Shown: piece by piece, positions 5,702 through 33,114 of the stretch
How positions within the stretch are numbered: position 1 is the first letter of the stretch
Layout of the letters: every line of letters begins with the position of its first letter
Assembly: GCA_035635555.1 (NCBI GenBank)
Contig: DASQAT010000021.1
Coordinates: 23,975-87,974, forward strand
Source of the DNA: Candidatus Dormiibacterota bacterium
GTDB lineage: Bacteria > Acidobacteriota > Polarisedimenticolia > Gp22-AA2
DNA length: 64,000 nucleotides
Reading direction: 5' to 3'
Program-made: the position numbers and the translations under genes
The notes under the pieces: model-generated
Databases searched by the model: none
The model's input: only the letters and a program-made list of their open reading frames with translations
Told to the model about the DNA's origin: nothing

Positions 5702-5799
5702 GACCACCCCGAAAACCCCCGGCGGCTGGCCCCTTTTCAGTCGTCTTGTCAAAAAAGCATTGACAGGCGGAGCCGCCCGCCGGATACTCGGGGGCAACA

Positions 5800-14452: not shown

Positions 14453-14745
14453 GCGTCCCCTCTGTGCAAGCCTTCTGCCAGATGGGAGTCCGGTGGGGAC
14501 CTTGCCGGAATTCACGACGGTGCAAGGACTTCGAGCGAACGATCGGGGAAGACGTGTCGCGGCCCCCAAAAATCGCGCTGTCGCGGCTGACGACAGCCCC
14601 ACCCGGCGTGGCGGTCGGGAAATGCCGCTAAACCCATGGACTCAAGGGCCTTCGAGCCTGTGCCCGTAAATCGTACAGTCCGTGTCCAGCCTCTGGTCAA
14701 ACGGACTGGCGGAACGAGTGCCCGGAGCCCGCTCGATCGTCGTTC

Positions 14746-17209: not shown

Positions 17210-19111
17210 ATGAACCGGAAGCGCTCCGTTTCGTCTTTCCCCGCACTGCTTCTCGTCCTCGCCTCCGGGGTCGGTCCGGCGGTCGCGGCCCCGCCGGGGG
17301 AGGTCACCGGCGACCGGATCGACCAGAACTCCCAGCTGACCTGGACCGCCGTCGCCGGGGCGGACGACTACAACGTCTACCGGGGGGAGGTCGCCTGGCT
17401 CCGGTCCCGGACCGGGGCGGAGTGCCACGGCGACGAGATCGCCGGCACGTCGTTCGCGACCCCCCTGCAACCCTCCGCCGGCCACGGATACTTCTATCTC
17501 GTCACCGCCGAGTCGAACCTGAACGGCGAGGGGACCCCGGGGAACGACACGAGCGGCACCCCCAGGCCTCTGCGCGGCTCCTGCGACCGGATCATGCGTC
17601 ACCACTACCTCGATCGCCTCGGGTACGGGTGGAACGAGTGGACGCGCGACCGGTTCACGGCGCTGGGCCGGCAGGGCTACATCGACGAGCAGCTGAATCC
17701 GGCGTCGATCGACGAGTCCACCAACACCGATCTCGTGACCCGCTCCTCGACCCTGGTGCCGCCGGACACGATCCAGGAGCTGCAGGGGCTCGACCTCGTC
17801 CGCGCGGTGTACGCCCGGCGCCAGCTCGAGCAGCAGGCCACCCTGTTCTGGGACAACCACTTCAACACCGACTACCACGAGAGCTTCGATTTCTTCTCCT
17901 TCTACCAGACGCTGTTTCCGGCCACGCGTCTCTACGAGTCGGCGAAATTCCATTTCGATCTCCAGAACTCGCTCCGGGGCCTGGCGTTCAACGGCACGTT
18001 CCGGGAGATCGTCGAGGCGAGCTCGATGAGCCCCGCCATGATCGTCTTCCTCGACACCGACAGCAACGTCAAGAGCGCCCCGAACGAGAACTTCGCCCGC
18101 GAGCTGATGGAGCTGCACACCCTGGGGGTGGACGGGGGCTACACGCAGCAGGACGTGGTGGCCCTCGCGCGCGTGTTCACCGGCTGGAACGTCTGCAAGA
18201 AGGCGGACGCCGACGCCGGCGATCCCCTGGCGGCCTGCATCCCGCGCAACACTTACGGCACCGCGACCGAGCCGCTGGGGCAGTTCGTACGCAACTTCCG
18301 CATCAACCAGCACGACACCGGCCAGAAGATCCTGTTCGCCGGCACGCCGTACCAGGCGGTCATCCCGGACACGTCGGCCAATCCGGCGAACGGGATCAAC
18401 GACGCCGACCTGGCGCTGGACGCCATCGTGGCGCACCCCTCCACGGCGCGCTTCATCGCCAAGGAGCTCTTGCAGCGGTTCGTGGACGAGGACCCGCCGT
18501 CGTCGATGATCGACACCGTCGTGGCCGCCTGGAACAACCCGGCCAACCCGCGCGGAGTCGGCGACCTGCGCGAGGTGCTGCGGGCCGTCCTGGCGCTGCA
18601 GGAGTTCAAGAGTCCCGACTTCGTGGGGCGGAAGATCAAGACGCCGTTCGAGCACGTCGCCTCGGCTCTGCGCACGGTGCGCGGCAAGACCGACGGAGCG
18701 ACCATCACGAGGCTGTACCTGACGCCGCTCCAGGAGGTGTTCCACGTGAACCCGGTCCCGACCGGCTACTCCGAGCTGGGCGGTGACTGGCTCGACACCA
18801 ACAATCTCCTGGTGAGGCAGAATTTCGGGCTGGACCTCGGCTCGCGCACCGGCACCGCCTTCGGCAACGATGTCATCGGGCTCCTCAACGCCAACGGCGT
18901 CGCGACCGCCCCGGCGCCCAACAACGCCCCGGCCATCGTCGACTTCCTCTCGGAGGCGATGTTCGGATCGGCGCTGACCGGCGCCGAGCGGCAGGCGGCG
19001 ATCGACTACCTGAACACCGATGACACGGGCGCCGTGAGTCCCTACAACGACGCGCGCATCCGCGAGACCGCCGGTTTTCTCCTCGGCTACCCCCAGTTCA
19101 TCGAGCAGTAG
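17210..19111 (+). CDS. DUF1800 family secreted protein with an extra N-terminal FN3-like Cys-bracketed module
   Basis: Signal peptide (ALLLVLASGVGPAVAAPPGE) with GGGAGGG 7 nt upstream. The DUF1800 core follows (FWDNHFNTDY...ARELMELHTLGVDGGYTQQDVVALARVFTGW). Residues about 40-128 carry the shared module (LTWTAVAGADDYNVYRG..C..GHGYFYLVTAESNLNGEG..C). Confidence 0.8.
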   Translation: MNRKRSVSSFPALLLVLASGVGPAVAAPPGEVTGDRIDQNSQLTWTAVAGADDYNVYRGEVAWLRSRTGAECHGDEIAGTSFATPLQPSAGHGYFYLVTAESNLNGEGTPGNDTSGTPRPLRGSCDRIMRHHYLDRLGYGWNEWTRDRFTALGRQGYIDEQLNPASIDESTNTDLVTRSSTLVPPDTIQELQGLDLVRAVYARRQLEQQATLFWDNHFNTDYHESFDFFSFYQTLFPATRLYESAKFHFDLQNSLRGLAFNGTFREIVEASSMSPAMIVFLDTDSNVKSAPNENFARELMELHTLGVDGGYTQQDVVALARVFTGWNVCKKADADAGDPLAACIPRNTYGTATEPLGQFVRNFRINQHDTGQKILFAGTPYQAVIPDTSANPANGINDADLALDAIVAHPSTARFIAKELLQRFVDEDPPSSMIDTVVAAWNNPANPRGVGDLREVLRAVLALQEFKSPDFVGRKIKTPFEHVASALRTVRGKTDGATITRLYLTPLQEVFHVNPVPTGYSELGGDWLDTNNLLVRQNFGLDLGSRTGTAFGNDVIGLLNANGVATAPAPNNAPAIVDFLSEAMFGSALTGAERQAAIDYLNTDDTGAVSPYNDARIRETAGFLLGYPQFIEQ

Positions 19112-19120
19112 GAGGAACGC

Positions 19121-20533
19121 ATGGACCCGACGAAGGATTGTGACTGCTCGCGCCGGTCGTTCCTGAAGGGGGCCGGGCTGACCCTCAGCGGATTCTCGAT
19201 CGCCTCGCTCTTCCCGGGACCGTGGATCCGCTTCGCCATGGGGGCCGGGCCGTTCAACAACAGACGGCTGCTGTTCATCTTCCTGCGCGGCGGCAACGAC
19301 GGACTGAACACGGTCATTCCCGCGGGCGATGTCGACTACAACACGCTCAACCGTCCGACGCTGTACATCCCCCCGACCGCGTCGCTCGACCTGAACGGCT
19401 TCGCCCACCTGCACCCGGCCCTCGCCGACCTGATGGAGATCTACAACGCCAACAACCTGGCCGTGGTGCACCGCGTGGGGTTCCCGAACAACAGCCGGTC
19501 GCATTTCGACGACCAGCGGACCTGGGAGAACGGCGACCCGGCCGATCCGAAATCCTACGAAGGCTGGCTGTACCGCTACATCGTTCAGAGCGCCATCGAC
19601 CAGGGGGTGCGTCTTCCGGCCATCACGGTGCAGGCGCTGCCGCCGGTGATCGTGAGGGGGGACGAAAAGTTCGTGAACGTGGCGAACCCCGACTCGTTCG
19701 ATTACATCTTCCCCGATCCGAAACGCTCCAAGTTCATGAACTCCTGGCGCAACGTGTACTCGAGCCTCACGGGGCTCGAGCCGTTCCGTCCGGCGCTCAC
19801 CGACACCAGCGTCAAGCTGATCGACACCCTGGACGAGTACCGCTCGTGGGACCAGCTGCACTGGGACCCGAAAGACCCGAACACGGGGTACTCTCTCTTC
19901 CCGGTCAGCGACGCGACCAATCCTCCCGATCCCGCGGGGCCGGGCGGCCTGAAGTTCGCGGCCACCAGCTACCCGTTCTTCAAATCGCTCAAGATTTGCG
20001 CCCTGGCGTTCCTGGAGAGCGACGCGGCCAACCAGAACGGCACGCGGGTCGCCGGCACCGAGCTGTCGAGCTTCGACACGCACAACAGCCAGGGCTCGAC
20101 CGCGGGCACGCAGGCGACGCTCCTGTCCTGGCTGGCCTACGGCATGCGGTCGCTGCACGTCGTCCTGTCGGGGGCGGCGGTCGATCCGCGCAACTACGCG
20201 TCGGTCTGGCAGGACACCGCGGTGGTGACGTTGTCGGAATTCGGACGCACGTCCAAGGAGAACGGCAGCGTCGGCACCGATCACGCTGCCGCCTCGTGCC
20301 TGTTCGTCGCCGGCGGCGACGTAACAGGAGGAGTCTACAACTGCGACGATTCGACCTGGCCGAAGGGAGTCATGTTCGGGGACTCGGGGCGGTACCTGCT
20401 GGTGAGAACCGACTACCGCGCCATCTTCTGGGAGATCCTGCGCGATCACATGGGGGCGTCGGCGTCGGCCGCCGACACGGTGTTCCCGGGATACTCGTCG
20501 CTTGGTCTCGCCGAGCTGAACCTGATCGCGTAG
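19121..20533 (+). CDS. DUF1501 family protein (sulfatase/alkaline-phosphatase-like fold) with twin-arginine signal
   Basis: Tat motif SRRSFLKGAG; GGAGGA RBS. Typical DUF1501 sequence (LLFIFLRGGNDGLNTVIP...SEFGRTSKENGSVGTDHAAASCLFVAGG). It follows DUF1800 after a 9-nt gap, which is the canonical DUF1800/DUF1501 pairing. Confidence 0.85.
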   Translation: MDPTKDCDCSRRSFLKGAGLTLSGFSIASLFPGPWIRFAMGAGPFNNRRLLFIFLRGGNDGLNTVIPAGDVDYNTLNRPTLYIPPTASLDLNGFAHLHPALADLMEIYNANNLAVVHRVGFPNNSRSHFDDQRTWENGDPADPKSYEGWLYRYIVQSAIDQGVRLPAITVQALPPVIVRGDEKFVNVANPDSFDYIFPDPKRSKFMNSWRNVYSSLTGLEPFRPALTDTSVKLIDTLDEYRSWDQLHWDPKDPNTGYSLFPVSDATNPPDPAGPGGLKFAATSYPFFKSLKICALAFLESDAANQNGTRVAGTELSSFDTHNSQGSTAGTQATLLSWLAYGMRSLHVVLSGAAVDPRNYASVWQDTAVVTLSEFGRTSKENGSVGTDHAAASCLFVAGGDVTGGVYNCDDSTWPKGVMFGDSGRYLLVRTDYRAIFWEILRDHMGASASAADTVFPGYSSLGLAELNLIA

Positions 20534-20540
20534 AGAGAGC

Positions 20541-23330
20541 ATGCGCAGAGCGGTGCCACAGCGCCTGGCCGCGCTCCTTGCGGCCGTGGCGCTCGTCCGG
20601 CTCGCGGGGCCGTCCGGAACGGCCGCCCCGTCGGCGGCCTCGATCCGCCTGAACGCCGCCCTCCTCGCCGGGGTCACGCCCACGCACGGCGCCCCGGATG
20701 CGCCGACCCTCCTGTCGATCTCCGGGGACGGACTCGCCCCGGGGTCGCGTGTCTCGCTGCTCGACGGCGGGCCGTTCCTCCTCGGGTCCTACATCATGCC
20801 GGAGGGTGCGCGCGCCGTGGAGGTGCACGGCGACCATGCCTGCGTCGCGTTCTACAGCCACGCCCGGAAGCTCGGCGGCATCGAGATCCTGGACCTGACC
20901 GACCCGACGACGCCCGCCCGCGTCGGCGCGTTCGAGACCGGGGACAGCGGCGTGGGGGTGGTGGTCGCGGGGTCGGTCGCCTACGTGCCGTTCCTCAACC
21001 CGTACACCTTCGAGGGAGGGCTGCACATCGTCGACATCGCGGCTCCGGACGATCCGCGCCGTCTGGGGACGTTCTACTCTCTCGTCGATCCGCAGGCCGT
21101 GGCCGTCCAGGGAACGCGCGCCTACGTGGCGGACGGTGTGGAGGGACTGAAGATCATCGACGTCACGGACCCCGCCTCGCCGCGCCTGCTCGGAGTCTAC
21201 GACACCGCCGGCACGGCGCGCGACGTGAAGGTCATCGGCACCCGCGCCTGCGTCGCCGACGGCGAGGGCGGTCTGCTCGTCCTGGACGTCGGCGATCCCT
21301 CCGCACCGGCCGTCGCCGGGACGTATGCGTTCCCTTCGAGCGCCGTCGTCTCGGTGGCCCTGGACGGGTCGCGTCTGTACGCCGCCGACACTCTCGCCGG
21401 TCTGCTCGTCTTCGACATCGCCGACGATGGCCGGCCGACGCTCCTCGGGACGACGCGGACATCGGACAGCGCCTCGGGGGTCGCGCTCGCGGGCCGCCTC
21501 GTGGTCGTCGCCGACGGTGTGTCCGGGCTGCAGATCGTGGACGCGTCCGACCCGGCCCGCCCGAGGGTCGTCGGGAGCCAGGGGCTGTATGGAAATTCCG
21601 GCTACTTCTTCGCGGTGGCGGTCGACGGGACGCGTGCCGTGGTCGCCGACATCATCAACGGCGTGCAGGTGATCGATCTGCGGCATCCGGCGCAGCCGGC
21701 ATCCGCCGGGGCGCTCGAAGGGCCGCCGGTGATCGCTGCGGGGGTCCCGGGGGGTGTCACGGGGGTCGCGGTCGACGCCGCCTCGTCCCTGGCCGCCCTG
21801 GCGGACGGCGCGGGCGGGCTTGTCCTCGTCGACGTCCGGAACGCGGCGTCGCCGTCGGTGCTCGGCTCGCTTTTGACGGGCGGCCCCGCGAACGGGATAG
21901 CACTCGCGGACGGCACGGCCTACATCGCCGCGGGCGGCGCCGGGCTGTCGATCGTCGACGTGCGCTTCCCCGGGGCGCCGGCGCTTCTCGGGACGCTCGA
22001 CACGCCGGGGGACGCCCAGGCGGTGGCCGTCGCCGACGGGAGGGCCTACGTCGCGGACGGGAGTCGCGGACTCCAGGTCGTCGACGTGTCCGACGGCAGG
22101 CACCCGGCGCTCCTCGGAGCGTATGACACGCCCGGAAGCGCGCGGGGCGTGTTCGTCGCGGACTATGCCTACGTCGCCGACGATTTCATGGGGATGGAGA
22201 TCCTCGACATAAGCGCCGCCGCCCCGCGCCTGGTCGGCCGGTACGACACGCCCGGCCGGGCGGTCGGGGTGGCGGTCGGCGGCGGCCGCGCCTACGTCGC
22301 CGATCTCAACCGCGGTCTTCAGATCCTGGACGTCCGCGACAGGGAGGCGCCGGTCCTGGTCCAGAATCTCAGCACGCCTGGTGCTGCGCAGGGGGTCGTG
22401 CTGGCGGGCGACCGGCTTTACGTAGCCGACGGCTTCAGCGGTCTTCTGGAGATCGACGTCGGCGACCCGGACCGGCCGATCCTCGCCGGCGCCTACGATA
22501 CGCCGGGGATAGCGACCGCCGCGGCGACCGCGTCCGGACTGGTGTTCGTGGCCGACGGGAGTCACGGTCTGAGGATCATCAGGCCGAACCCCGCGATCCC
22601 CGGGCCGCAGGCCAAGCCGGACTCGGGCCTGGCCGTCATGCTGCCGGCCGGCTTCACACCCGGCCCGTACGACTTGCAGGTGACCGGCCCGGACGGGGCG
22701 ATCGCTCTCCTCCCGGACGGATTCCTGGTCTGCAGGCACCTGGATCTCGCCGCGCGTCTCGTGTCCGTGGACTCGAACGACGCGCCGGGGCGCGCGGCGG
22801 AGGGAGCCCCCGGGCTCTATCGCCTGGTGCTGAGCGGCGACGACGATCTGTTCTCGCCCGGGGCCGCGAGGCGCGCGCGCCTCCTCCTGCCCGCGCTCCC
22901 GGCCCGGGTCGAGGTGCGGGCGGCGACCGGCCCGTCGATCATCGAGCTGCGCATCGGTCCCTCGCCCGGCGAGGCGACGGTGCTCGTCTCGGGGCCCGAT
23001 CCCGCCGCGGCGGCGCTGCAATGGGAGACGATCCGCGCGGCGGGTGGGGTCGACCTCCCCCCCCTCGACGAAACGACCTACGGCGATCTGCGGCTGTCCG
23101 TCCTGGCCGGCGCAGGCGGGCCGGCCGGCCGGGCGGCGGGAAGAGCGCCGCGTGAACCGGGACCGCCCGTGCGGTATCGTTATGTGTTCGAGGCGGGGCG
23201 CCTGGTCGGGGCGGGCGCCTGGGGCCCCGGCGCCGCGCTCCTGTTCGACGTCTCGGCCGGCGATCCGGACGGCTGCGGCGCGGAGACTCGCGTGACCTTC
23301 GACGAACCCCGGGGAGGAGGGACGCCATGA
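20541..23330 (+). CDS. secreted LVIVD-repeat beta-propeller protein
   Basis: There are more than 15 repeats of the form AYVADG..GL.IVDV.DP..P.L.G.YDT.G.A.GV.V.G, the LVIVD-repeat signature, plus an N-terminal signal peptide. The gap from the preceding gene is 7 nt. Confidence 0.75.
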   Translation: MRRAVPQRLAALLAAVALVRLAGPSGTAAPSAASIRLNAALLAGVTPTHGAPDAPTLLSISGDGLAPGSRVSLLDGGPFLLGSYIMPEGARAVEVHGDHACVAFYSHARKLGGIEILDLTDPTTPARVGAFETGDSGVGVVVAGSVAYVPFLNPYTFEGGLHIVDIAAPDDPRRLGTFYSLVDPQAVAVQGTRAYVADGVEGLKIIDVTDPASPRLLGVYDTAGTARDVKVIGTRACVADGEGGLLVLDVGDPSAPAVAGTYAFPSSAVVSVALDGSRLYAADTLAGLLVFDIADDGRPTLLGTTRTSDSASGVALAGRLVVVADGVSGLQIVDASDPARPRVVGSQGLYGNSGYFFAVAVDGTRAVVADIINGVQVIDLRHPAQPASAGALEGPPVIAAGVPGGVTGVAVDAASSLAALADGAGGLVLVDVRNAASPSVLGSLLTGGPANGIALADGTAYIAAGGAGLSIVDVRFPGAPALLGTLDTPGDAQAVAVADGRAYVADGSRGLQVVDVSDGRHPALLGAYDTPGSARGVFVADYAYVADDFMGMEILDISAAAPRLVGRYDTPGRAVGVAVGGGRAYVADLNRGLQILDVRDREAPVLVQNLSTPGAAQGVVLAGDRLYVADGFSGLLEIDVGDPDRPILAGAYDTPGIATAAATASGLVFVADGSHGLRIIRPNPAIPGPQAKPDSGLAVMLPAGFTPGPYDLQVTGPDGAIALLPDGFLVCRHLDLAARLVSVDSNDAPGRAAEGAPGLYRLVLSGDDDLFSPGAARRARLLLPALPARVEVRAATGPSIIELRIGPSPGEATVLVSGPDPAAAALQWETIRAAGGVDLPPLDETTYGDLRLSVLAGAGGPAGRAAGRAPREPGPPVRYRYVFEAGRLVGAGAWGPGAALLFDVSAGDPDGCGAETRVTFDEPRGGGTP

Positions 23331-24973
23331 GAGTAGAACGTTCGGTGCCTCCGGTCATCCGGCCGGCCGCCGCCTGCTTCGCCGCGGCCTCCCTGCTGCT
23401 GGCGGCGCCGCGGTCGGAAGCGGCCTTCGACTGCACGGGTGTGACACCGGCCGCCAACACTGTGCTTGTGGCCGTGCCGGTCGCGACCGGCCTCACGGCG
23501 CGGCCGCACCTGGTGACTTCCCCCCCGGGCGATACGGCGCGTCTGTTCATCGTGGAGCAGGGCGGATTCATCCGCATCAAGAGGCGCGGTGATCCGTCCG
23601 GCACGCTCTCGACCTTCCTGGACATCAGCGCGAAGGTGCAGGCCTCCACGATTCACAACGAGATGGGTCTTCTGGGCCTGGCGTTCGATCCCGACTACGG
23701 CACGACGGGCTCCTTCTACGTGAACTACACCGAGGGGCCGCTGAACGGACCGTGGTTCAGCGTGGTGGCGCGCTATCAGGTGTCGGGCGATCCGAATGTC
23801 GCCGATCCCAACAGCGAGCAGCGGCTCCTCCGCTATTCGCAGCCGCAGGACAATCACAACGGCGGTCAGCTCCAGTTCGGTCCCGACGGATACCTCTACA
23901 TCTCCACCGGGGACGGCGGGGGGGCCGGCGACCAGCACGGCACCTGCGGCAACGGCCAGAGCCGGGCGAGCCTTCTCGGCAAGCTCCTGCGTCTCGACGT
24001 CCGCGGTGTCGCACCGTCCAGCCTGCCGCCCGACTGCGGAGGGACGACGGCGGTCTACAGAATCCCGTCCGACAATCCGTTCGCCGCGGGTCTCGGCGGC
24101 GACTGCGACGAGATCTGGGCCTACGGGCTGCGCAACCCCTGGCGCTCCGCCTTCGACGAAGCGACGGGGGACCTGTACATCGCCGACGTCGGCCAGAACT
24201 GCTGGGAGGAGATCGACTATGTCCCGGGCCCCGGCGCCGGCGGGGAGAACTTCGGCTGGCGGATGATGGAGGCGAACCACTGCTACAACAACAGCACTCC
24301 GAACACCTGCGACCCGACGCCCGCCTCCTGCGCCGGCGTGCCGGCCTGCAAGGACCCCTCCTTCACCGACCCGATCGCCGAGTACGGGCACGGCAGCGGC
24401 TGCTCGATCACCGGCGGGTTCGTGTACCGCGGCTGCCTGATGCCGAACCTGGCGGGTGCCTACTTCTACGGCGATTACTGCTCGGGGTTCATCCATTCGT
24501 TGCGCGTCGTCGGCGGTGTCGCGACCGATCCGCGCGACTGGACGGGGCAGATCGACCCCGGCTCGACCCTGAGGAACAGTCTGACCGGCTTCGGCGTCGA
24601 TCGACAGGGGGAGCCGTATGTCGTCGACCGCAAGGGCACGATTCTCAAGATCATGCCGCCGTTGTCCGACCTCGAAGTCGCGGGCCGCAACACCCTGCAG
24701 CCGCTCCTGCTCCTGGCCGCGGCCTGGACCTGGGAGGACCTCGCGTTCGACACCATGGCCCCGGTGGTCTCGTACCGCGTCTATCGCGGCGTCCCCGGCG
24801 GATCGTTCGCCTGCGTCTTCACCGCGCCCACGCCGCAGTGGACGGGAGGGGACCCGGCGTCCCCCGCCGTCGGCCATGTGTTCGCCTACGTGGTCACGGC
24901 GGTCGGCCCCTACGGCGAAGAGACGAAGAGCGGCGATCCGCCCGTGAACCTCCTCCCCGGTTCCTGCCCGTGA
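23327..24973 (+). CDS. PQQ-dependent soluble sugar dehydrogenase (glucose/sorbosone dehydrogenase, GSDH family) with C-terminal FN3-like module
   Basis: GSDH hallmarks are present (MGLLGLAFDPDYGTTGSFYVNYTE, HNGGQLQFGPDGYLYISTGDGG, WAYGLRNPWRSAFDEATGDLYIADVGQNCWEEIDYV) along with a signal peptide. Its start overlaps the LVIVD stop (ATGA). The C-terminal 85 aa carry the shared module (YRVYRG..C..GHVFAYVVTAVGPYGEE..C). Confidence 0.8.
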   Translation: MRVERSVPPVIRPAAACFAAASLLLAAPRSEAAFDCTGVTPAANTVLVAVPVATGLTARPHLVTSPPGDTARLFIVEQGGFIRIKRRGDPSGTLSTFLDISAKVQASTIHNEMGLLGLAFDPDYGTTGSFYVNYTEGPLNGPWFSVVARYQVSGDPNVADPNSEQRLLRYSQPQDNHNGGQLQFGPDGYLYISTGDGGGAGDQHGTCGNGQSRASLLGKLLRLDVRGVAPSSLPPDCGGTTAVYRIPSDNPFAAGLGGDCDEIWAYGLRNPWRSAFDEATGDLYIADVGQNCWEEIDYVPGPGAGGENFGWRMMEANHCYNNSTPNTCDPTPASCAGVPACKDPSFTDPIAEYGHGSGCSITGGFVYRGCLMPNLAGAYFYGDYCSGFIHSLRVVGGVATDPRDWTGQIDPGSTLRNSLTGFGVDRQGEPYVVDRKGTILKIMPPLSDLEVAGRNTLQPLLLLAAAWTWEDLAFDTMAPVVSYRVYRGVPGGSFACVFTAPTPQWTGGDPASPAVGHVFAYVVTAVGPYGEETKSGDPPVNLLPGSCP

Positions 24974-25929
24974 GACGGTCCCTGGCCGGGGCCCTGCTCG
25001 TTCTGGCCGCCTGTCCCTGTCCGGTCGATGCCGCCTGGACGGCGCGGCCTCAGCACCCCGCAGCCTCGACACCCGAGCCGAAACGCGCCGAATTTCGCCG
25101 CCGGATCGAAGAGAGGCTCGCCCGCCTCGTCTCCGGGCTGCAGGGGGCCTCGGGATACGTCATCCGCGATCTCGCCGGCGGTGAAGCGTTCGAGAAGGAC
25201 GCCGGCGCCGTGTTCCCCGCCGCCTCGACCATCAAGCTGCCGATCTTCCTCGATCTTCTCAAGCGATCGGAGGAAGGAAGGCTCGACCTGGCGCGCCCGG
25301 TGCCGATCGATCCGAAGACGCGCGTGGAAGGGGGCGGCGTGCTGGAGAAGTGGTCGGAGCCGTACCCGGTCCTGTCGGCCGATCATCTCGCCGTCCTGAT
25401 GATGGACTTCTCCGACAACTATGCCACGAACGTCCTCATCGATCTCGTCGGCATGGACACTGTGCAAAGACGTCTCGACGCCTGGGGGATGAAGGAGACG
25501 CTCCTGCGACGCAGGATGATGGACCTCGAGGCGGCGCGGGCCGGGCGCGAGAACGTCACGACACCGCGCGAGATGGCCGGGCTGCTCGAGCGGTTGTACC
25601 GGGGCGAGATCCTGAACGCCGGGAACACCCGCAAGGCGATCGAGATCATGAAGCGGAACGAAAAGACTCCGATCAAGAGAGGGCTGCCGCCGGGTGTCCC
25701 GGCGGCCGACAAGGACGGGGATCTGGACGGGCTGCGCTGCGACTCGGGGATCGTCTTCGTCGCGGGCCGCTCCGCGGACGCCGCGCGGCCGTTCGTCATT
25801 TCGGTGATGACCGCCTACCTTCAGGATGACAGGGCGGGCGAGGAGTTCATCGGCGAGGTCGCGCGGGCGGCGTGCGATTATTTCGAGACCCTGGCGCGCT
25901 CGACCGAGCACGGGCGGAAGATGGATTAG
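24970..25929 (+). CDS. class A beta-lactamase-related serine hydrolase (lipoprotein), non-canonical KDG in place of KTG
   Basis: The GTG start overlaps the GSDH stop (GTGA). The product has a lipobox-like signal (LLVLAACPC). Class A motifs include SxxK (AASTIKLP) and SDN (FSDNYATN), and an omega-loop-like segment (RRRMMDLEAARAGRENVTTPREM). KDG (AADKDGDLDG) replaces KTG. The product is 319 aa. Confidence 0.75.
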   Translation: MRRSLAGALLVLAACPCPVDAAWTARPQHPAASTPEPKRAEFRRRIEERLARLVSGLQGASGYVIRDLAGGEAFEKDAGAVFPAASTIKLPIFLDLLKRSEEGRLDLARPVPIDPKTRVEGGGVLEKWSEPYPVLSADHLAVLMMDFSDNYATNVLIDLVGMDTVQRRLDAWGMKETLLRRRMMDLEAARAGRENVTTPREMAGLLERLYRGEILNAGNTRKAIEIMKRNEKTPIKRGLPPGVPAADKDGDLDGLRCDSGIVFVAGRSADAARPFVISVMTAYLQDDRAGEEFIGEVARAACDYFETLARSTEHGRKMD

Positions 25930-26825
25930 CGGTCGGCCCCCATCATCCCCGGCTTCAGGTAGGGGATCGGATCGACCGGGCGGCCGTCGCGTCGCACTTC
26001 GAAGTGCAGGTGTGTGCCGCGGGCGTTCCCGGTGGCGCCGACCTCTGCGATCGTCTGGCCCTGCTCGACTTCGTCCCCTTCGCGCACCAGGAGCCGGCTG
26101 GCGTGGGCGTACAGCGTGGTCACGCCGTTGCCGTGATCGATCACCACCGTCTTGCCGTACTTCCCCTCGCTGCCCGAGTGCACCACGATCCCCGGGGCGA
26201 CGGCGCGGACGTCCTCGCCCCGGACACCGTCGATGTCGATGCCGTCGTGGTGATGGTGCCGTCCGCGCTGGCCGAAGGCCCCCGTGATCAGGCCATCGAG
26301 AGGCCAGGCGATGCTCATCTCGGAAGGGGCCGAAGCGTCCTCCGACATCGGCTTCTGCCGCGGGACGGGGGCCGCCACGGGGGGAGCGGCCGGCGCCGCG
26401 CCCGGTTGCGCCGGCGCCGGTATGTAGATTTCGGTGCCGGCGCGGATGGTTGTCGGGTCGCGGATGCCGTTGGCGCGCAGAATCGTCTGGAGCGGCACCT
26501 CGTACGCCCGCGACAGCGAGTACAACGTCATGCCGGGTTGCAGGCTGACACGCACGCCGGCCGCGGTCGAAGCACCGCCCGCCTCGTCGCAATCCTCCGA
26601 GCACCCCTCCGGCTCGGCCGGTGGCAGGGAGACGCGGGGGCGGTCGAGACGCACCGCGGGCTCGGCCCCGCCCAGTCTCGAGGGGTGTTCCCACTCGGCG
26701 ACCGGCGGAGGCTCCGCAGAGGTCACCGCGCGCGACGCGGCGCGCCCCCCGCAACAGGGCAGCAGGAGCGCTCCCGCCGCCGCAAGCAGAGACAAGGGAA
26801 ACCGGCTCCCGATGCGTCCGTGCAT
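25926..26825 (-). CDS. LysM-domain M23 family metallo-endopeptidase (murein hydrolase-like), lipoprotein
   Basis: The product is 299 aa. It has a signal with LLPCCGG, a LysM domain (YSLSRAYEVPLQTILRANGIRDPTTIRAGTEIYIP), and the M23 HxxxD (HHHHDGIDID) and HxH (GTHLHFEV) motifs. Its stop overlaps the convergent beta-lactamase-like gene's stop. Confidence 0.8.
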   Translation of the reverse strand: MHGRIGSRFPLSLLAAAGALLLPCCGGRAASRAVTSAEPPPVAEWEHPSRLGGAEPAVRLDRPRVSLPPAEPEGCSEDCDEAGGASTAAGVRVSLQPGMTLYSLSRAYEVPLQTILRANGIRDPTTIRAGTEIYIPAPAQPGAAPAAPPVAAPVPRQKPMSEDASAPSEMSIAWPLDGLITGAFGQRGRHHHHDGIDIDGVRGEDVRAVAPGIVVHSGSEGKYGKTVVIDHGNGVTTLYAHASRLLVREGDEVEQGQTIAEVGATGNARGTHLHFEVRRDGRPVDPIPYLKPGMMGADR

Positions 26826-27020
26826 GAGGCAATCCTCCCTATTAATATGATGGAGGGTGATCAGCCCGTCCACCCCTGCAACGGCCCGAATTTCCGGGCC
26901 TTCGAGAGGAAGCCCACGTGTAACCCGCGCCCCCGGCGGCTTCCGCCGATGGCGATTTTGTAATGGTCCGGCGTCGGCACGGTTGATCGACCCCTCGACC
27001 GGATGGTACAGTCCGCCTCC

Positions 27021-28928
27021 ATGCCCCGGACGGAACTCTTGCTCCGGCTTTCCGCAGCCGCCCTGCTCGTGGCCTCGACGGCCTGCCGCGCCGAGCGCCC
27101 CGCGCACCTGACCGGCGCTGGTGCGGCGGACACGGCGAACGCCGGCCCGGCCGCGCCGACGGGCGCCCTCGTGCAGCAGCCCTACTTCGCCAACATGACC
27201 GTCGAGAGGAACACCGCGGTGCCGATGCGCGACGGGGTCGTCCTGCGCGCCGACATCTACCGCCCGGCGGCGCCCGGTAGGTTCCCGACGCTGGTCTATC
27301 GAACGCCCTACGGCAAGGACGCTCTCGTGGAGTCGGGGTACGAGCCGACCATCGTGAGAGCGGCGCGGGCCGGGTACGCGGTCGTCGTGCAGGACGTGCG
27401 CGGACGGTTCCGTTCTGACGGCGAGTTCCGCCCGTACCAGCAGGAGGGCCACGACGGTTACGACACGATAGAGTGGGCGGCTGCGCAGGGATGGAGCAAC
27501 GGCCGCGTCGGCACGTTCGGGCTGTCTTATCCGGGGGCCGTGCAGTGGCTCGCGGCCATGGAGGCCCCGCCGCACCTCGTGTCGATTTTCCCGGCGATGA
27601 CGTTCGACACGGGCCGGCACTTCTTTTTCTTCGGCGGCGGGTTCAACCATGACTGGATGCGCTGGATCCTCCTGAACATCGCCCCCGACGTCAGGCAGCG
27701 CAAGGGGCTGCGCGGTGCCGTGACGGAGAAGGAGGCTCAGGCGGAGTGGGACCGCCTCAAGTGGCAGTGGGAGAACTACCTGCCCCTGCGCGAGTTTCCC
27801 GTCCTGAAGGAGGTCGCCCCCTGGTACTACGAGTGGCTCGAACACGCGGACGACGGGCCCTACTGGGACTTCGCCGACGTGACCCGGGCCCACCCGAAGA
27901 TCACGACGCCGGCGCTCAACTTCTCCGCCTGGTACGACAGCAACTACGGCCCGCTCGGGGCGATCGCCAATTACAACGGCATGCGGGAGAAGGGCGCGAC
28001 CGATCTGGCCCGGCGCGGCCAGAGGCTCATCCTGGGCCCCTGGGACCACGGGGATCCGACGGAATACGAGACCAAGGTGGGGGAGATCGATTTCGGGCCG
28101 AACATGACGTTCGACTACTACTCTCTGGTGATCAAGTGGCACGACCGCTGGCTGAAGGAGATCAGGAACGGTGTGGACGAAGGACCGCCGGTGCGCATCT
28201 TCGTGATGGGGGACAACGTCTGGCGCGCCGAGAACGAATGGCCGCTCAAGCGCACGCTGTACGTGCCCTACTACCTGCACAGCGGCGGACGCGCCAACAC
28301 CGCTGCGGGGGACGGTTCGCTGTCGACCGCCGAACCGGCCGCCGCGGCCGCAGGAGCCGAGGAGCCGCCCGATCGGTACGTCTACGATCCCCATCGACCC
28401 GTCGTCGTGGAAAACTTCGAGAAGATGGGACCGTACGACCATTCGAAGATGCAGTCGCGCCAGGACATGCTCGTCTACACCACCGGGCCGCTCGCCGAAG
28501 ACATCGAGGTGACCGGTCCGATCACCGTGCACCTGTGGGCGGCGTCGAGCGCCGTCGACACCGATTTCGCCGTGATGCTCTGCGACGTCTATCCCGACGG
28601 CCGCGCCTACAACCTCGCGCCGAACGAGGCCGGCTTCCTGCGCGCCCGCTACCGCAAGTCGGAGTCGGCGCCCGAGCTCCTGACGCCGAACGAGCCGACC
28701 GAGTTCGTCATCGGCCAGATGGTGACCAGCAACGTCTTCAAGAAGGGGCACCGCATCCGGCTGCAAGTGACCAGCAGCCGTTTTCCCTCGTTCGATCGCA
28801 ATCCGAACACCGGCGACCCGTTCGGCGAGTCGAGCCGCGTGATCGTCGCCCGCCAGACGATCCTGCACGACGCGATCCACCCCTCGCGGGTCGTCCTGCC
28901 CCTCATCCCGCGCGGCCCCGGACAGTGA
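27021..28928 (+). CDS. CocE/NonD family hydrolase (S15 Xaa-Pro dipeptidyl-peptidase-like), secreted
   Basis: It has a signal peptide (RTELLLRLSAAALLVASTACRA) and the nucleophile motif GLSYPG. Family sequence is typical (FPTLVYRTPYGKD...VVVQDVRGRFRSDGEF...). The minus-strand 1022-aa ORF over this region is a shadow, except for its 3' 900 nt, which is the M23 gene. Confidence 0.85.
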   Translation: MPRTELLLRLSAAALLVASTACRAERPAHLTGAGAADTANAGPAAPTGALVQQPYFANMTVERNTAVPMRDGVVLRADIYRPAAPGRFPTLVYRTPYGKDALVESGYEPTIVRAARAGYAVVVQDVRGRFRSDGEFRPYQQEGHDGYDTIEWAAAQGWSNGRVGTFGLSYPGAVQWLAAMEAPPHLVSIFPAMTFDTGRHFFFFGGGFNHDWMRWILLNIAPDVRQRKGLRGAVTEKEAQAEWDRLKWQWENYLPLREFPVLKEVAPWYYEWLEHADDGPYWDFADVTRAHPKITTPALNFSAWYDSNYGPLGAIANYNGMREKGATDLARRGQRLILGPWDHGDPTEYETKVGEIDFGPNMTFDYYSLVIKWHDRWLKEIRNGVDEGPPVRIFVMGDNVWRAENEWPLKRTLYVPYYLHSGGRANTAAGDGSLSTAEPAAAAAGAEEPPDRYVYDPHRPVVVENFEKMGPYDHSKMQSRQDMLVYTTGPLAEDIEVTGPITVHLWAASSAVDTDFAVMLCDVYPDGRAYNLAPNEAGFLRARYRKSESAPELLTPNEPTEFVIGQMVTSNVFKKGHRIRLQVTSSRFPSFDRNPNTGDPFGESSRVIVARQTILHDAIHPSRVVLPLIPRGPGQ

Positions 28929-28997
28929 GCTGAATCGGATTGACAACCGGCCCGGATGGGGGTATGTGAAAGGCTGAACGCCGCCGCACCCCATGCC

Positions 28998-31640
28998 ATG
29001 ATGCGGTCGAAGAGTCGAAGTCGGCCTGTCCTGGCACGTCTCGCTCTAACGACGTGCGTCTGTGTAGGGCTCTGCACTTCTCATCCGGGTGCGGCCTGGT
29101 ACCTGAAAGCCGACGTGCGTGTCATCTCGGCCGCCTACCGTGATCTCGACGGAGACCACGACGCCTTCCCGGACACGGGAGAGTCGGGTCGGCTCGTCCT
29201 CACAATCAAGAACTTCGGCCCGACGCTCACCGGAGTCAACCTCTACCTGACGACGGACGATCCGAACGTCGCGTGCATCTCCACCCCCGCCTATGTCCTC
29301 GGAAACCTCGCGGCGAAAGCGGTCAGGACCATCGGCAGCTTCGATCCGACAGTCCCCGGCTTCACGTTCAGGGCGAGCGACACGCTCCATACGATCTCCA
29401 CGGCGACACCGGCCAACGTCACGCTGTATCTGACCGCGACCGCCTCAGGATACGGGACCTCCGATCCTTACCCTATCCGTCTGGCGGCCGACATCGATGC
29501 CGCTCCCGGCCTTCCGTCCGCCTACGTCCTCGGCCCCGACGGGGTCGCGGGGACGGGGGATGACGGCACGGTCCTGGAGTCGTTCGACAGGGATCGTGAC
29601 GGCGACGGGACATTCTCGACGGCCGACACGTTCGGCCTGCTCGATGCGGGCACGGGGGAGATGAGTCATGGCTCCTTCGCGCACGGCGGTGCGGCATCAG
29701 GGACGGACGCTCTGGCGGCCATCGCCTGTGGCGGGTTCAACACCCCCGCCGAGGGAAACCTGGAATGCCGCCTCGACACGGACTATCCCATGGACTGGCA
29801 CTTCCATTGCCCGGCCGGCGCGACCGGATGCCCCAACACCGAGAGCGGCGGCTTCGGCGCCCTCCGCCAGGGTTGCGTCGGAGGCTGCTCGTACAACACG
29901 CCCGCCGACGGACAGAAGGCGCTGTCCCTCCCCAACTCACTGCACATGGGAGCGCACTTCGATCCCAACGTGTCTTCGAACGGCGACACGACCCACCTGA
30001 GAACACTGCAAGCCTTCGTGTCGGCTCCAATCAATCTGGCGATCCCGCCGCGCGACCTCGACGATCTCACGCTGTCGTTCTGGCAGATCGTCGATCTGTT
30101 CGGCCCGATCAACAGCGAGGGGAACATGTGCCTGGACTGCGCCCAGGTCCACATCCAGTCGGACCGCGACCCCGACCCGGCCGTGGACGACTGGGGCCCC
30201 TGGGACACCCTGACGCCGTTCCAGAGCTCCTACGACATGAAATTCAGGGCCTGGAGCGCGTTTGGAGCCGCTTACTGCGATTTCACCCCGGTCGACACCG
30301 GCTCGAATCCTCCCGCGCCTCGCGGAGTGCACGAGACGATGTGCGCCGGCGAACACGCCTGGTCGAAATGCGGCAGTCTCCAAGCAGTCACCACGGGGCC
30401 GAGCGACAACTGCTACGGAGGAGTCCTCGACCCCTCCGGACGCGGCACCTGGGTCCAGACCAAGTTCAACCTCGCGCCCTTCCTCGGCCGCAGGATACGG
30501 ATCCGCTGGATGGCCAGCACCTGGCAAATGGACGGTGTCACCTCTTCGTACTACGAGTCATTGGGATACCGCGACCTGCCGGACGACAACGGCTGGTGGC
30601 TGGACGACATCCGGATCGCCGGTGCGGTCCAGGGACAGTCGCCGCCCGCGCTGGACGTGCGCCCCTCGCCGGGCTCCGTCTGCCCGGTCGCATGCGATCC
30701 CCAGACCGGCGATCGAGGGACGCACATCGTCCTCAGGGCCACCGACTCTTTGTTGGGGCCGGTCTTCGACGGATTCGACTCCGTTCCGGTCACCGGAACG
30801 ACGGTCGTCATCGATGCGTCCGCCTCGACGCTTCCCGGCGGGTGCCTCGGCGGCCTGCCGCAGTTCCAGTACCTGGTGGATGGCGGGCTGGTGCAGGACT
30901 GGACCGCTCAGCCTTTCCTTTCCCATCAGACGACCTATAGCAGCACCTTCGTGGTCACGGTCCGGATGCGTTGCAGCTCCGATCCGGATTGCACGAGCCT
31001 GTCGGGCGCGACTCTCGCCGTCCCGGTCGACACGCTGGACGGTGACGATACGGTATTCGGGGAATCGATCAATCCTCTGAATCTCGCGCACGGAGTCGAC
31101 TATGACGGCGGAGCGCGCGCAACGACGTTGCGCTTCTGGACCTCGCGGAACGGCTCCGTCGACGTGTATCGCGGCCTCATCGGGCCGGGGATCAGTAAGG
31201 GAACGCTCCTGGGGCCTCCGTCCGATCCGAATTACCGCTGGTTGGTGGACACGTCCGGAGCGGCCGGCTCGTCCGCCACGTGTCTCTTCAGCAATCTTCC
31301 GGTCGGTCCCGCCGCGGGCGGGGGCGGCGCCGGGGCGACGGGATCGATGGACCAGGCCAGTGATCCGGATCCCGCCGTGGGGTTCGCCGTGTACTACCTC
31401 GCGTCGCGAAACACGGCGGCCGGCTCGAGCCTCAATCAGCTGGGCTGCGCCAATCCGGGCGTGTGCGGGTCGACGACCACTCGCACGGGGGCCGCGTGCC
31501 ATACGAGCGCGGATTGCCCACCGTCCGGCTACTGTTTTCTGACCGTCCCTGCGAATCCTCCGCCGGTCCCTCTTCCTTTTGCTTGCCCGCTCGGTTACCC
31601 GCTCGTCCGCGAGGTTCCCCCGGCCGCGGTCTGCCCGTGA
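28998..31640 (+). CDS. large secreted multidomain protein (about 880 aa): N-terminal CARDB-like beta-sandwich, Cys-rich central region, jelly-roll-like segment ending GWWLDDIRI, C-terminal FN3-like shared module
   Basis: Signal peptide (LARLALTTCVCVGLCTSHPGAAW). The first domain (GESGRLVLTIKNFGPTLTGVNLYLTTDDPNV) is CARDB-like. The C-terminal region reads VDVYRG...C...DPDPAVGFAVYYLASRNTAAGSS...C. No catalytic motif was recognised. Confidence 0.6.
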   Translation: MMRSKSRSRPVLARLALTTCVCVGLCTSHPGAAWYLKADVRVISAAYRDLDGDHDAFPDTGESGRLVLTIKNFGPTLTGVNLYLTTDDPNVACISTPAYVLGNLAAKAVRTIGSFDPTVPGFTFRASDTLHTISTATPANVTLYLTATASGYGTSDPYPIRLAADIDAAPGLPSAYVLGPDGVAGTGDDGTVLESFDRDRDGDGTFSTADTFGLLDAGTGEMSHGSFAHGGAASGTDALAAIACGGFNTPAEGNLECRLDTDYPMDWHFHCPAGATGCPNTESGGFGALRQGCVGGCSYNTPADGQKALSLPNSLHMGAHFDPNVSSNGDTTHLRTLQAFVSAPINLAIPPRDLDDLTLSFWQIVDLFGPINSEGNMCLDCAQVHIQSDRDPDPAVDDWGPWDTLTPFQSSYDMKFRAWSAFGAAYCDFTPVDTGSNPPAPRGVHETMCAGEHAWSKCGSLQAVTTGPSDNCYGGVLDPSGRGTWVQTKFNLAPFLGRRIRIRWMASTWQMDGVTSSYYESLGYRDLPDDNGWWLDDIRIAGAVQGQSPPALDVRPSPGSVCPVACDPQTGDRGTHIVLRATDSLLGPVFDGFDSVPVTGTTVVIDASASTLPGGCLGGLPQFQYLVDGGLVQDWTAQPFLSHQTTYSSTFVVTVRMRCSSDPDCTSLSGATLAVPVDTLDGDDTVFGESINPLNLAHGVDYDGGARATTLRFWTSRNGSVDVYRGLIGPGISKGTLLGPPSDPNYRWLVDTSGAAGSSATCLFSNLPVGPAAGGGGAGATGSMDQASDPDPAVGFAVYYLASRNTAAGSSLNQLGCANPGVCGSTTTRTGAACHTSADCPPSGYCFLTVPANPPPVPLPFACPLGYPLVREVPPAAVCP

Positions 31641-31725
31641 CCAGAGGGCATGATCCCCGGTTGACCGTAAGCACCCGGGGCGGTATATACGGTGCATCGA
31701 CGACGGCCGGAAGCGAGGGCGCCCG

Positions 31726-33114
31726 ATGGACCGCGTTCGGGAACGATCTCGTGGACTGTGGGCGATCGCAACCGTCCTGTCGTTTCTCGCCTGGGCCGAG
31801 GCCCGGGCCTCGGTCAACATCCAGAGCTTCTCGCTCGCGCCCGCGTCGCCTGACACCGGCGACCCGCTCGTCCTGACGGCGGTCATCCAGTCGACGTCCT
31901 CCTGCGACTTCATCGACGCCCGCATCGGCATCGGGGCGCAGGCCGAGCTCGGCGGGCGGACGGGCTGGGGCATCGACGTCGAGTTCCGGGATGGTGTCCT
32001 CCCGGTCGTCAGCACGTGTCCGATCGAGAAGAGCCTGGGCACGCTGCCTCTGGCTGTGGGCGAAGGTGTCCTGAGGGCCCGCAACGACGGGATCGTGAAC
32101 GACGTCGCCCTCTTCACCCTGGCGGTCGCACCGGGACCCGCACCGGGGTGGGACGGCCCGGCCCTGCACGGAGGATTGCCCCTCCAGGTCGTCAGCGCGG
32201 CGGCGACATCCCTGCCGGGACGCCTGGCGGTGTCCGATCTCCTGGCCCTCCGGATCCTGGTCCTCGACCCGGAGACCGGGGATCTCCTGTCGTCGTTCCG
32301 CTCGCCGGGTTCGGGCGACGTGCGCGGTCTGGCCTGGGACGGGAGCAGTCTCTACGCGTCGGTACGCGATTCGTTCGGCCCGCGGATCTACAGGCTCGAT
32401 CTTCTGGGGAGAATCCTGGATTCGTTCCCGAGCCCCTCCATCACCCCAGGCAACGCGCCGCTCGAAGGGCTGGGGTTCCAGGGCGGCGTGCTCTACGGTT
32501 CGTACGAGAGTCCGCCCACGCTCTTCGCGATCAACCCGTCCACGCACGCGACCCTCTGGAACCGTCCGCTGCGGGACAAGATCCTGGCGCTCGACGCCGC
32601 GCCGGAGGGTCTCCTGGGAGCCACCCCGACGGGGTCCTTCTACTTCATCCAGCCGGATCCCGCGGGTCAGGACATCCTGCTCGCCGACGCGGCGGACACG
32701 GGGATCACCACGGTCCCGCAGATCACCGGGCTGGCCTACGACGGCAGCGGCCTCTTCGCGTGGGACGCGGCGACCTACACGATGATGTCGATGCGGACGT
32801 TCGCGCTGTGGTGGGCGAGGGACGGGACGCTGCAGGCCTACGTGCCCGCTCCGGACCAGGCCGTGGACGTCATCCGGGGGGATCTCGACGATACGCAGCA
32901 GCTGTCGAACTTCCTCGACCTGGCGTTCTTCGCGCCCCCCGTCTGCCTCGCCTCCCGCAGCCCCGGCGGCGTCGTGGCCGATCCCGACAACCCGCCGGCG
33001 GGCCACGTCTTTTTCTATCTCTCGCGCTTCATCGACGCGGCGGGACACAAGAGCTTCTACGGCAGGACCTCGGACGGCTTCCGCCGGATCGACGGCAGCG
33101 ACGCCTGTCCGTGA
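31726..33114 (+). CDS. secreted protein with beta-propeller-like core and C-terminal FN3-like shared module
   Basis: It has a signal/TM segment (LWAIATVLSFLAWAEARA) and propeller-like repeats (LAWDGSSLYASV..., LAYDGSGLFAWD...). The C-terminus reads VDVIRGD...C...PAGHVFFYLSRFIDAAGHKSFYG...C. Confidence 0.6.
   Translation: MDRVRERSRGLWAIATVLSFLAWAEARASVNIQSFSLAPASPDTGDPLVLTAVIQSTSSCDFIDARIGIGAQAELGGRTGWGIDVEFRDGVLPVVSTCPIEKSLGTLPLAVGEGVLRARNDGIVNDVALFTLAVAPGPAPGWDGPALHGGLPLQVVSAAATSLPGRLAVSDLLALRILVLDPETGDLLSSFRSPGSGDVRGLAWDGSSLYASVRDSFGPRIYRLDLLGRILDSFPSPSITPGNAPLEGLGFQGGVLYGSYESPPTLFAINPSTHATLWNRPLRDKILALDAAPEGLLGATPTGSFYFIQPDPAGQDILLADAADTGITTVPQITGLAYDGSGLFAWDAATYTMMSMRTFALWWARDGTLQAYVPAPDQAVDVIRGDLDDTQQLSNFLDLAFFAPPVCLASRSPGGVVADPDNPPAGHVFFYLSRFIDAAGHKSFYGRTSDGFRRIDGSDACP

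Follow-up and report, generated by a model that had tools for sequence, protein, structure and literature searches.

Four neighbouring exported proteins of one bacterial locus carry diverged copies of an unannotated FN3 subfamily, a likely accessory cap or spacer

What kind of domain recurs at the termini of four neighbouring exported proteins, and does it tie these proteins to one another? The question arises from a DNA stretch of 64,000 nucleotides (here called the window; contig DASQAT010000021.1 of GenBank assembly GCA_035635555.1, positions 23,975 to 87,974 of the forward strand), in which a DUF1800 protein, a glucose/sorbosone dehydrogenase (GSDH) and two proteins of 894 and 462 amino acids (aa) share one order of motifs. 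A first-pass annotation of the window had described the shared segment as a fibronectin type III (FN3)-like module of 80-100 aa with a conserved cysteine (Cys) pair, and had proposed that it links four otherwise unrelated exported enzymes. According to our analysis, and with a probability of roughly 0.6, the four segments are copies, long since diverged, of a single unannotated FN3 subfamily, and the module is likely to serve as a generic stabilising cap or spacer and not as a specific coupling device. The copies are listed below, with C1 and C3 denoting the two Cys of the conserved pair.

17288..17587, + strand: copy 1, DUF1800 protein aa 27-126, directly after the signal peptide; C1 is Cys72, C3 is Cys125
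24662..24970, + strand: copy 2, GSDH aa 446-548, protein end ...LLPGSCP; C1 is Cys496, C3 is Cys547
31074..31466, + strand: copy 3, 894-aa protein aa ~707-837, the most diverged copy; C1 is Cys776
32779..33111, + strand: copy 4, 462-aa protein aa 352-462, protein end ...GSDACP; C1 is Cys407, C3 is Cys461

The copies are ~100, 103, 112 and ~131 aa long, the longest being that of the 894-aa protein, and the length given by the first pass was thus an underestimate. Copy 1 is joined to the DUF1800 domain without a linker.

All four motif strings quoted earlier were present in the translations. A six-frame search of the 64-kb window with the expression [YVIF].[VIL][YIFW]RG and a downstream G..[FY].Y returned exactly these four sites, and a local-pair alignment placed each of the two Cys in one column across the copies. 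We then scored a hidden Markov model (HMM) against all six-frame pieces of the window. This model was built from 58 sequences from outside the window and contained no DUF1800-type members, to avoid circularity; the remaining six-frame pieces, which have the same composition, served as a chance control. The four copies ranked at the top, with E-values of 1e-26 (DUF1800), 3e-9 (462-aa protein), 1.5e-5 (GSDH) and 0.11 (894-aa protein), followed by the next-best piece at 0.86. Profile-profile comparison (hhalign) against the external family alignment gave 97.4% (E 1.2e-11) for the 462-aa type with its orthologues, over the full length including the terminal Cys-Pro (CP), 96.0% (E 3.9e-9) for the GSDH type with its orthologues, again including the terminal CP, and 95.8% (E 6.7e-9) for the 894-aa type, for which four orthologues formed the profile. 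In these comparisons the DP.P..G..YYL block and the first Cys are in register. The significance of the alignment, which the first pass had left to be checked, is thereby established for three copies by the external HMM and for the 894-aa copy by the profile-profile comparison. BLASTP searches with the DUF1800 copy found C-terminal modules in more than 20 independent genomes (E 1e-15 to 1e-7). Alignment and the external HMM detected no further copies in the DUF1501, LVIVD, S15, S8 or MopE-motif proteins of the window.

Pairwise identity among the four copies is only 21-42%, for which reason a recent local duplication was rejected, and the DUF1800 copy is closer to modules of other genomes than to its neighbours in the window. 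Judged from these sequence comparisons, the four copies are ancient paralogues.

The copy of the 894-aa protein has two long loop insertions and is followed by a Cys-rich tail that extends to aa 893-894 (...AVCP at the protein end, nucleotides to 31637). For its second conserved Cys there are two candidates, C831, as chosen by the first pass, and the terminal C893 (...VCP). When the terminal ...VREVPPAAVCP was spliced on as a displaced tail, the HMM alignment ended at the F-G turn in both versions. The stretch of ~55 aa after the FN3 core contains six Cys (aa 831-877; window 31446-31637) and is followed by ...LVREVPPAAVCP and the stop codon; two orthologues of the protein (P0165 and P0166) have the same ending (..R.V......CP). 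This stretch may be a small disulfide-knot insertion placed before the family tail.

The FN3 resemblance proposed by the first pass was borne out by structure prediction and by profile searches. An AlphaFold2 model of the DUF1800 copy was confident and all-beta (predicted local distance difference test score, pLDDT, 93.5; predicted template modelling score 0.85), with strands at residues 13-14, 19-21, 30-37, 47-54, 58-60, 71-79 and 83-84, in the places expected. The top 50 Foldseek matches of this model in the PDB were all FN3 domains, the best being 3mpc (E 3.2e-4, probability 1.0). The model of the GSDH copy was weaker (pLDDT 70.5), and its best matches were again FN3 domains. Searched against PDB sequences, the family profile matched 3mpc (E 2.2e-6) and 5g56 (E 7e-5) and no other entry. 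Canonical repeats can be aligned column by column with the family consensus, ...L.W......YNVYRG...D..P..G..FYYLVTAEN..GEG.

Word-indexed homologue searches were sparse, yielding 17 sequences for one alignment (A1), mostly fragments near the DUF1800 copy, three for the tail of the 894-aa protein and five for another alignment (A3). An exhaustive profile search of 1.84 billion representatives gave 6143 matches at E<=1e-3, canonical FN3 repeats included. Among them were giant proteins with 10-42 Cys-less repeats that cover only profile positions ~15-90 and that Pfam assigns to fn3 (PF00041). By hhalign, the Cys-bearing family matched the PF00041-called repeats at 98.3% (E 1.4e-14) over 88 columns, and only the tail of ~9 residues was left unmatched. 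Given these profile matches and the predicted fold, the module is a diverged FN3 domain.

It shares with the tandem PF00041 repeats, which the family profile retrieves in large numbers, the W of strand B, the Y.VYR of strand C and the D..G..Y.Y.V.A.N..G.S of strands F and G. Repeats of the canonical kind measure ~94 aa, lack Cys and usually follow one another in tandem, whereas the module, of ~100 aa or more, stands alone or at a terminus and has C1, a Cys-bearing tail and a Pro within the D..P..G block. The best match, both by profile and by structure (28% identity in Foldseek), is the Fn3 domain of CtXyl5A, an arabinoxylanase of Clostridium thermocellum (3mpc, 5g56). Like the module it occurs singly, as an FN3 accessory to an exported enzyme of bacterial origin; unlike the module it has neither the Cys pair nor the C-terminal G..R.....CP tail, and it lies internally between CBM13 and CBM62 in a Gram-positive, cellulosomal setting.

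Current family models do not recognise the module. No Pfam or NCBIfam model touched it in the window, either in whole proteins or in isolated segments (E<=10), and this holds for PF00041, which did not match the four proteins or their isolated segments even at that threshold. PF00041 likewise gave no match to the modules of module-bearing proteins from elsewhere, and no NCBIfam model matched the module in ten outside members. The Solibacter C-terminal domain TIGR03437 showed no match, on the assumption that it was within the scanned NCBIfam set, as NCBIfam includes TIGRFAMs. By these scans, the module is a member of the FN3 superfamily outside the current PF00041 family model. A literature search on DUF1800/DUF1501 proteins and on C-terminal FN3 domains of Acidobacteria found nothing on it.

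The subfamily retains the FN3 core: strand B has its W, strand C reads Y.VYRG, and strand F bears the tyrosine corner [FY]YYLV.A.N..GE. Its distinguishing additions, seen in matches that span the profile from end to end, are C1, located in strand C', and a tail of ~9 residues, G..S.G..R.....C-P, with C3 as the penultimate residue. The Cys pair noticed by the first pass is well conserved, C3 being accompanied by C1 in 86/89 domains, and only its second member in the 894-aa copy is uncertain, as described above. Because C1 and C3 co-occur, a disulfide between them would probably lock the tail. In the model of the DUF1800 copy the tail is ordered: the last two blocks reach pLDDT 94 and 80, and beta-bridges occur at residues 95 and 98. 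An antiparallel register against strand C' would set C102 opposite C49. A second form has two extra Cys: C2 was found together with an upstream C0 in 38 of 40 domains, while C0 was present in 14 of 46 when C2 was absent. This co-occurrence gives a consistent pairing parity and implies that C0 would pair with C2 in addition to C1 with C3. The window copies belong to the one-disulfide form, and the window proteins have even Cys counts after their predicted signal peptides. Conservation that is specific to the subfamily falls on the staple and the tail.

Three giant tandem-FN3 proteins (P0022, P0028 and P0127) have two Cys per repeat, C1 and a Cys near profile position 61, and no tail Cys, which suggests another disulfide arrangement that uses the same C1 position.

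The position of the module was analysed in 76 modules from outside the window. Of these, 33 end the protein within 2 aa of C3, 27 are internal and 16 are N-terminal, 13 of the latter being of the DUF1800 type. Most of the internal modules (24 of the 27) lead straight into TSP3-like Asp repeats of the thrombospondin, Ca-binding type, and proteins with an internal copy mostly end in another copy. The last 45 aa contain no hydrophobic segment that would resemble a sorting tail, and the maximum 17-residue hydropathy is low. The passengers include Peptidase_S8, beta-lactamase fold, GHL10, Sortilin/BNR, FG-GAP, beta-helix, PKD and TSP_3 domains. The description of an accessory module on unrelated exported proteins therefore holds, but of the four window proteins GSDH is the sole identified enzyme; no function is known for the DUF1800, 894-aa and 462-aa proteins.

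A scan of species-representative genomes, which used a narrow peptide pattern (alignment A5) that skews the taxonomic picture to one subclass, returned 31 loci, 30 from Acidobacteriota (Mor1, Polarisedimenticolia, Holophagales and Terriglobia) and 1 from Gemmatimonadota. The seed open reading frame (ORF) ends at C3 in nearly all 31 loci, usually as CP before the stop, and the flanks contained nine further module matches in eight ORFs. The nearest module relatives found in these genomes are almost all from Acidobacteriota; the source metagenome-assembled genome bears the label Candidatus Dormibacteraeota at NCBI (taxonomy now Candidatus Dormiibacterota).

In the Acidobacteriota loci (L004-L034) we also observed a stand-alone small protein that consists of a signal peptide, an N-terminal domain of ~85 aa and a module ending in CP (for example L023:1-8384, L031:185-6787 and L010:5734-10751). 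The conserved cluster around it includes, in 10 loci, a Reg_prop/HisKA_3 histidine kinase of ~950 aa, in 9 loci a LuxR-type response regulator of ~300 aa and, in 21 loci, an uncharacterised family of ~800-870 aa that has no Pfam match and is present once or twice. A Mor1 stop-to-stop ORF grouped with this family (L010:6060-10751) contains Phage_GPD and Phage_base_V (VgrG-like) domains. The window has no equivalent of the cluster. In several loci the small module protein adjoins a large module-bearing exported protein of the GHL10 (L010), Peptidase_S8 (L020) or Sortilin/BNR (L024) type, or a BNR and TSP_3 protein with two modules (L030); L009 is also listed as an adjacent pair. These pairs suggest a tendency of module genes to lie together. 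Over their N-terminal ~70 aa, small module proteins (P0081, P0129 and L010:5734-6303) gave weak sub-threshold matches to NCBIfam NF058579, the candidate phyla radiation-type pilus protein PamT (E 1.6e-4 to 4.5e-3; 16-21 bits against a cut-off of 240), a similarity that is probably not meaningful.

What, then, would such a module do? By analogy with characterised bacterial Fn3 modules, a role in stabilisation, spacing or solubility is most likely. Sec export would presumably carry a module-bearing protein to the oxidising periplasm or to the exterior, where the C1-C3 disulfide could then lock the tail onto the beta-sandwich. The locked tail would give a compact, oxidatively stabilised and protease-resistant cap or spacer, often at the chain end, which would aid folding, solubility and stability of the passenger and might add a weak, generic surface binding. 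We favour such a generic accessory role because the passengers are diverse and because the conserved subfamily positions form the staple and tail and not a surface patch. Published roles of bacterial Fn3 modules are those of spacer, solubility aid, surface modification or weak binding (PMC5063996, PMC8100471); catalysis was unchanged when the Fn3 of CtXyl5A was deleted (PMC5063996), and another FN3 module improved solubility (PMC8100471).

Several points weigh against this role or against parts of the reading behind it. The 894-aa copy was marginal by single-sequence HMM (E 0.11), and the C1-C3 bond is predicted from co-occurrence and parity. Termination exactly at CP and the strong bias to the extreme C-terminus are more than a plain spacer needs, and this bias hints at a role of the chain end. 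Two choice-of-anchor Q proteins end in the module, which thus takes the usual anchor site. Module genes are often neighbours, four of them lying within 9 consecutive genes in the window, with several adjacent pairs elsewhere. Finally, the generic role is drawn by analogy with other FN3 modules.

A first alternative is that the module is a ligand-binding domain, comparable to a carbohydrate-binding module. By binding a common polymer of the envelope, the extracellular polymeric substance (EPS) or the soil, it would keep exported proteins close to the cell or to the substrate. Some bacterial FN3 modules have indeed been proposed to bind or modify polymer surfaces (PMC5063996, PMC8100471), and the partner domains TSP_3, BNR, PKD and beta-helix are typical of surface or matrix proteins. 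However, nearly all conserved positions belong to the FN3 core, the Cys staple or the tail, and no conserved aromatic or polar surface patch was evident; for the same reason there is no sign of a shared ligand site that would back the linking role proposed by the first pass. The passengers are not mainly glycan-active (DUF1800, GSDH, S8 peptidase, beta-lactamase fold), and the Fn3 of CtXyl5A, the closest solved relative, has no demonstrated ligand and was dispensable for activity (PMC5063996). We regard ligand binding as unlikely.

The chain-end bias could also mean that the module is a C-terminal sorting or anchoring domain. Following export by Sec, an unidentified outer-membrane or surface pathway would recognise the stapled FN3 cap, perhaps its terminal Cys-Pro, and the passenger would then be secreted or retained on the surface, by analogy with the C-terminal domain of Bacteroidota's type IX secretion system (T9SS). 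Such a function would fit the extreme C-terminal position with the stop exactly at CP, which holds for 33 of the 76 outside modules and for a large majority of the 31 loci, the multi-module proteins that end in a copy, the diverse passengers, all of them exported, and the use of the anchor position in the two choice-of-anchor Q proteins. It would also fit the many paralogues per genome and the module genes that adjoin one another. The T9SS domain resembles the module in outline, being a C-terminal beta-sandwich of ~80-100 aa on many unrelated Sec-exported proteins of one lineage (PMC4804311). But the N-terminal DUF1800 copies (13 of the outside modules and the window copy) and the 27 internal modules do not suit a sorting signal, and the module showed no similarity to Por_Secre_tail/TIGR04183 or to any NCBIfam sorting-domain model. 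Membership in the T9SS family was rejected on this ground and also because the module is not always the last domain. T9SS has been reported only from Bacteroidota (PMC5445135), a phylum to which the module hosts do not belong; no cleavage or machinery is known for the module, unlike the T9SS domain, and scans of the window revealed no T9SS gene and no other candidate machinery. What is conserved next to the small module protein is a two-component system together with an uncharacterised family, and neither is a known secretion apparatus.

Sorting signals of the transmembrane type (PEP-CTERM, MYXO-CTERM, LPXTG) were likewise considered. The module occupies the corresponding C-terminal site in choice-of-anchor Q and TSP3 (MtsC-like) proteins, but these signals consist of a hydrophobic helix and a basic tail, whereas module proteins stop at Cys-Pro. 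Since no hydrophobic segment occurs in the last 45 aa, this candidate was rejected. Altogether, a sorting or anchoring function is rather improbable. Its boldest form, in which the stapled FN3 cap ending in Cys-Pro would be the recognition domain of an undescribed secretion or surface-display pathway of Acidobacteriota-like soil bacteria, an analogue of the T9SS domain that marks a large lineage-specific exported proteome, with the N-terminal DUF1800 form as a secondary co-option, strikes us as a long shot.

The proposal of the first pass, that the module mediates recognition or complex assembly of the four neighbours, for example by module-module pairing, is best judged in the context of the genes that encode them. 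The window has a GC content of ~70%. Genes were called from codon-position GC and Pfam matches, which gave a run of exported-protein genes mostly on one strand:

17210..19111, + strand: DUF1800 protein, 633 aa, exported (Pfam DUF1800 aa 132-630, E 7e-89; GenBank HYS04650.1)
19121-20533, + strand: DUF1501 protein with a twin-arginine translocation (TAT)-like signal
20541-23330, + strand: LVIVD repeat protein
23327..24973, + strand: pyrroloquinoline quinone (PQQ)-type glucose/sorbosone dehydrogenase (GSDH), 548 aa, exported (Pfam GSDH aa 71-394, E 3e-31; HYS04653.1)
~24952-25929, + strand: class A beta-lactamase-like protein
25926-~26900, - strand: M23/LysM peptidase
27003-28928, + strand: S15 peptidase
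28956..31640, + strand: 894-aa exported Cys-rich protein of unknown function, no Pfam domain (HYS04657.1)
31726..33114, + strand: 462-aa exported protein of unknown function, no Pfam domain (HYS04658.1)

Because the gene junctions, read from the coordinates, are short or overlapping (the GSDH gene starts within the end of the LVIVD gene), DUF1800-DUF1501-LVIVD-GSDH and S15-894-462 look like two operons. The four module genes lie within 9 consecutive genes of ~50, with a post-hoc probability of ~0.01. This clustering in two apparent operons and the frequent pairing, in other genomes, of the small module protein with a large module-bearing neighbour speak for such an assembly. The low identity of the copies argues against it, as does the fact that, for every copy, closer relatives lie outside the window. 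The module is also carried by many proteins that are unrelated to one another and stand in unrelated contexts, and other exported proteins of the same gene run (DUF1501, LVIVD and S15 peptidase) lack it. A domain that specifically links these four proteins is therefore very unlikely.

The weak pairwise BLASTP matches between copies (best pairs ~1e-4 one-on-one) and the HMM value of the 894-aa copy could suggest that the copies resemble one another by chance or through composition only, as DNA of 70% GC gives translations rich in Ala, Gly and Pro. Such an artefact is refuted by the six-frame control, in which no other piece scored better than 0.86, by the strong external HMM and hhalign values, by BLASTP matches to independent genomes down to 1e-15 and by the confident fold prediction.

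All four module proteins have plausible N-terminal signal peptides, judged by eye without a predictor; the N-terminus of the DUF1800 protein, for example, reads MNRKRSVSSFPALLLVLASGVGPAVA. Their GenBank names refer to the catalytic domain only or are given as hypothetical protein, and sequence searches of Pfam, NCBIfam and the PDB found no relatives of the 894-aa and 462-aa proteins. Soil-metagenome contigs carry the same proteins. The GenBank product HYS04657.1 has 841 aa and thus starts at V54 of the 894-aa ORF, 53 residues later (window 28956-29117), which removes the apparent signal peptide MMRSKSRSRPVLARLALTTCVCVGLCTSHPGAAW; the longer ORF is also recorded in Logan assemblies. Several members of the 90%-identity cluster of the 462-aa protein (P0208, P0209 and P0214) are called as 264-aa products, which could be alternative start calls or truncated contigs.

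Elsewhere in the window, an 811-aa ORF (5764-8199) contains two Cu-binding_MopE putative metal-binding motifs (E 4e-27), and two further exported hydrolases are encoded nearby, an angiotensin-converting enzyme-like Peptidase_M2 (1-1887, - strand) and a Peptidase_S8 (12665-14641, - strand). The external-HMM scan of the window found no module in these three proteins. The window also encodes a resistance-nodulation-division (RND) pump with an outer-membrane factor (OEP).

In soil phyla that are abundant but little studied, many exported proteins have at their ends ~100 aa without annotation, for which the module family accounts. As an FN3 subfamily it is real and new, but as an accessory domain it is of an ordinary kind. 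As a large domain family missed by current Pfam and NCBIfam, it would, once described by a family model, improve annotation and flag exported proteins. Through the conserved tail staple and the Cys-Pro chain end, the question of how extracellular proteins are stabilised or targeted in these bacteria becomes concrete and testable. As a variant of a domain that is very well known, the module has its use in annotation, and its biological interest is modest unless its C-terminal bias reflects sorting; in that case an unknown surface-display route would be indicated, and otherwise the module would be a routine accessory domain.

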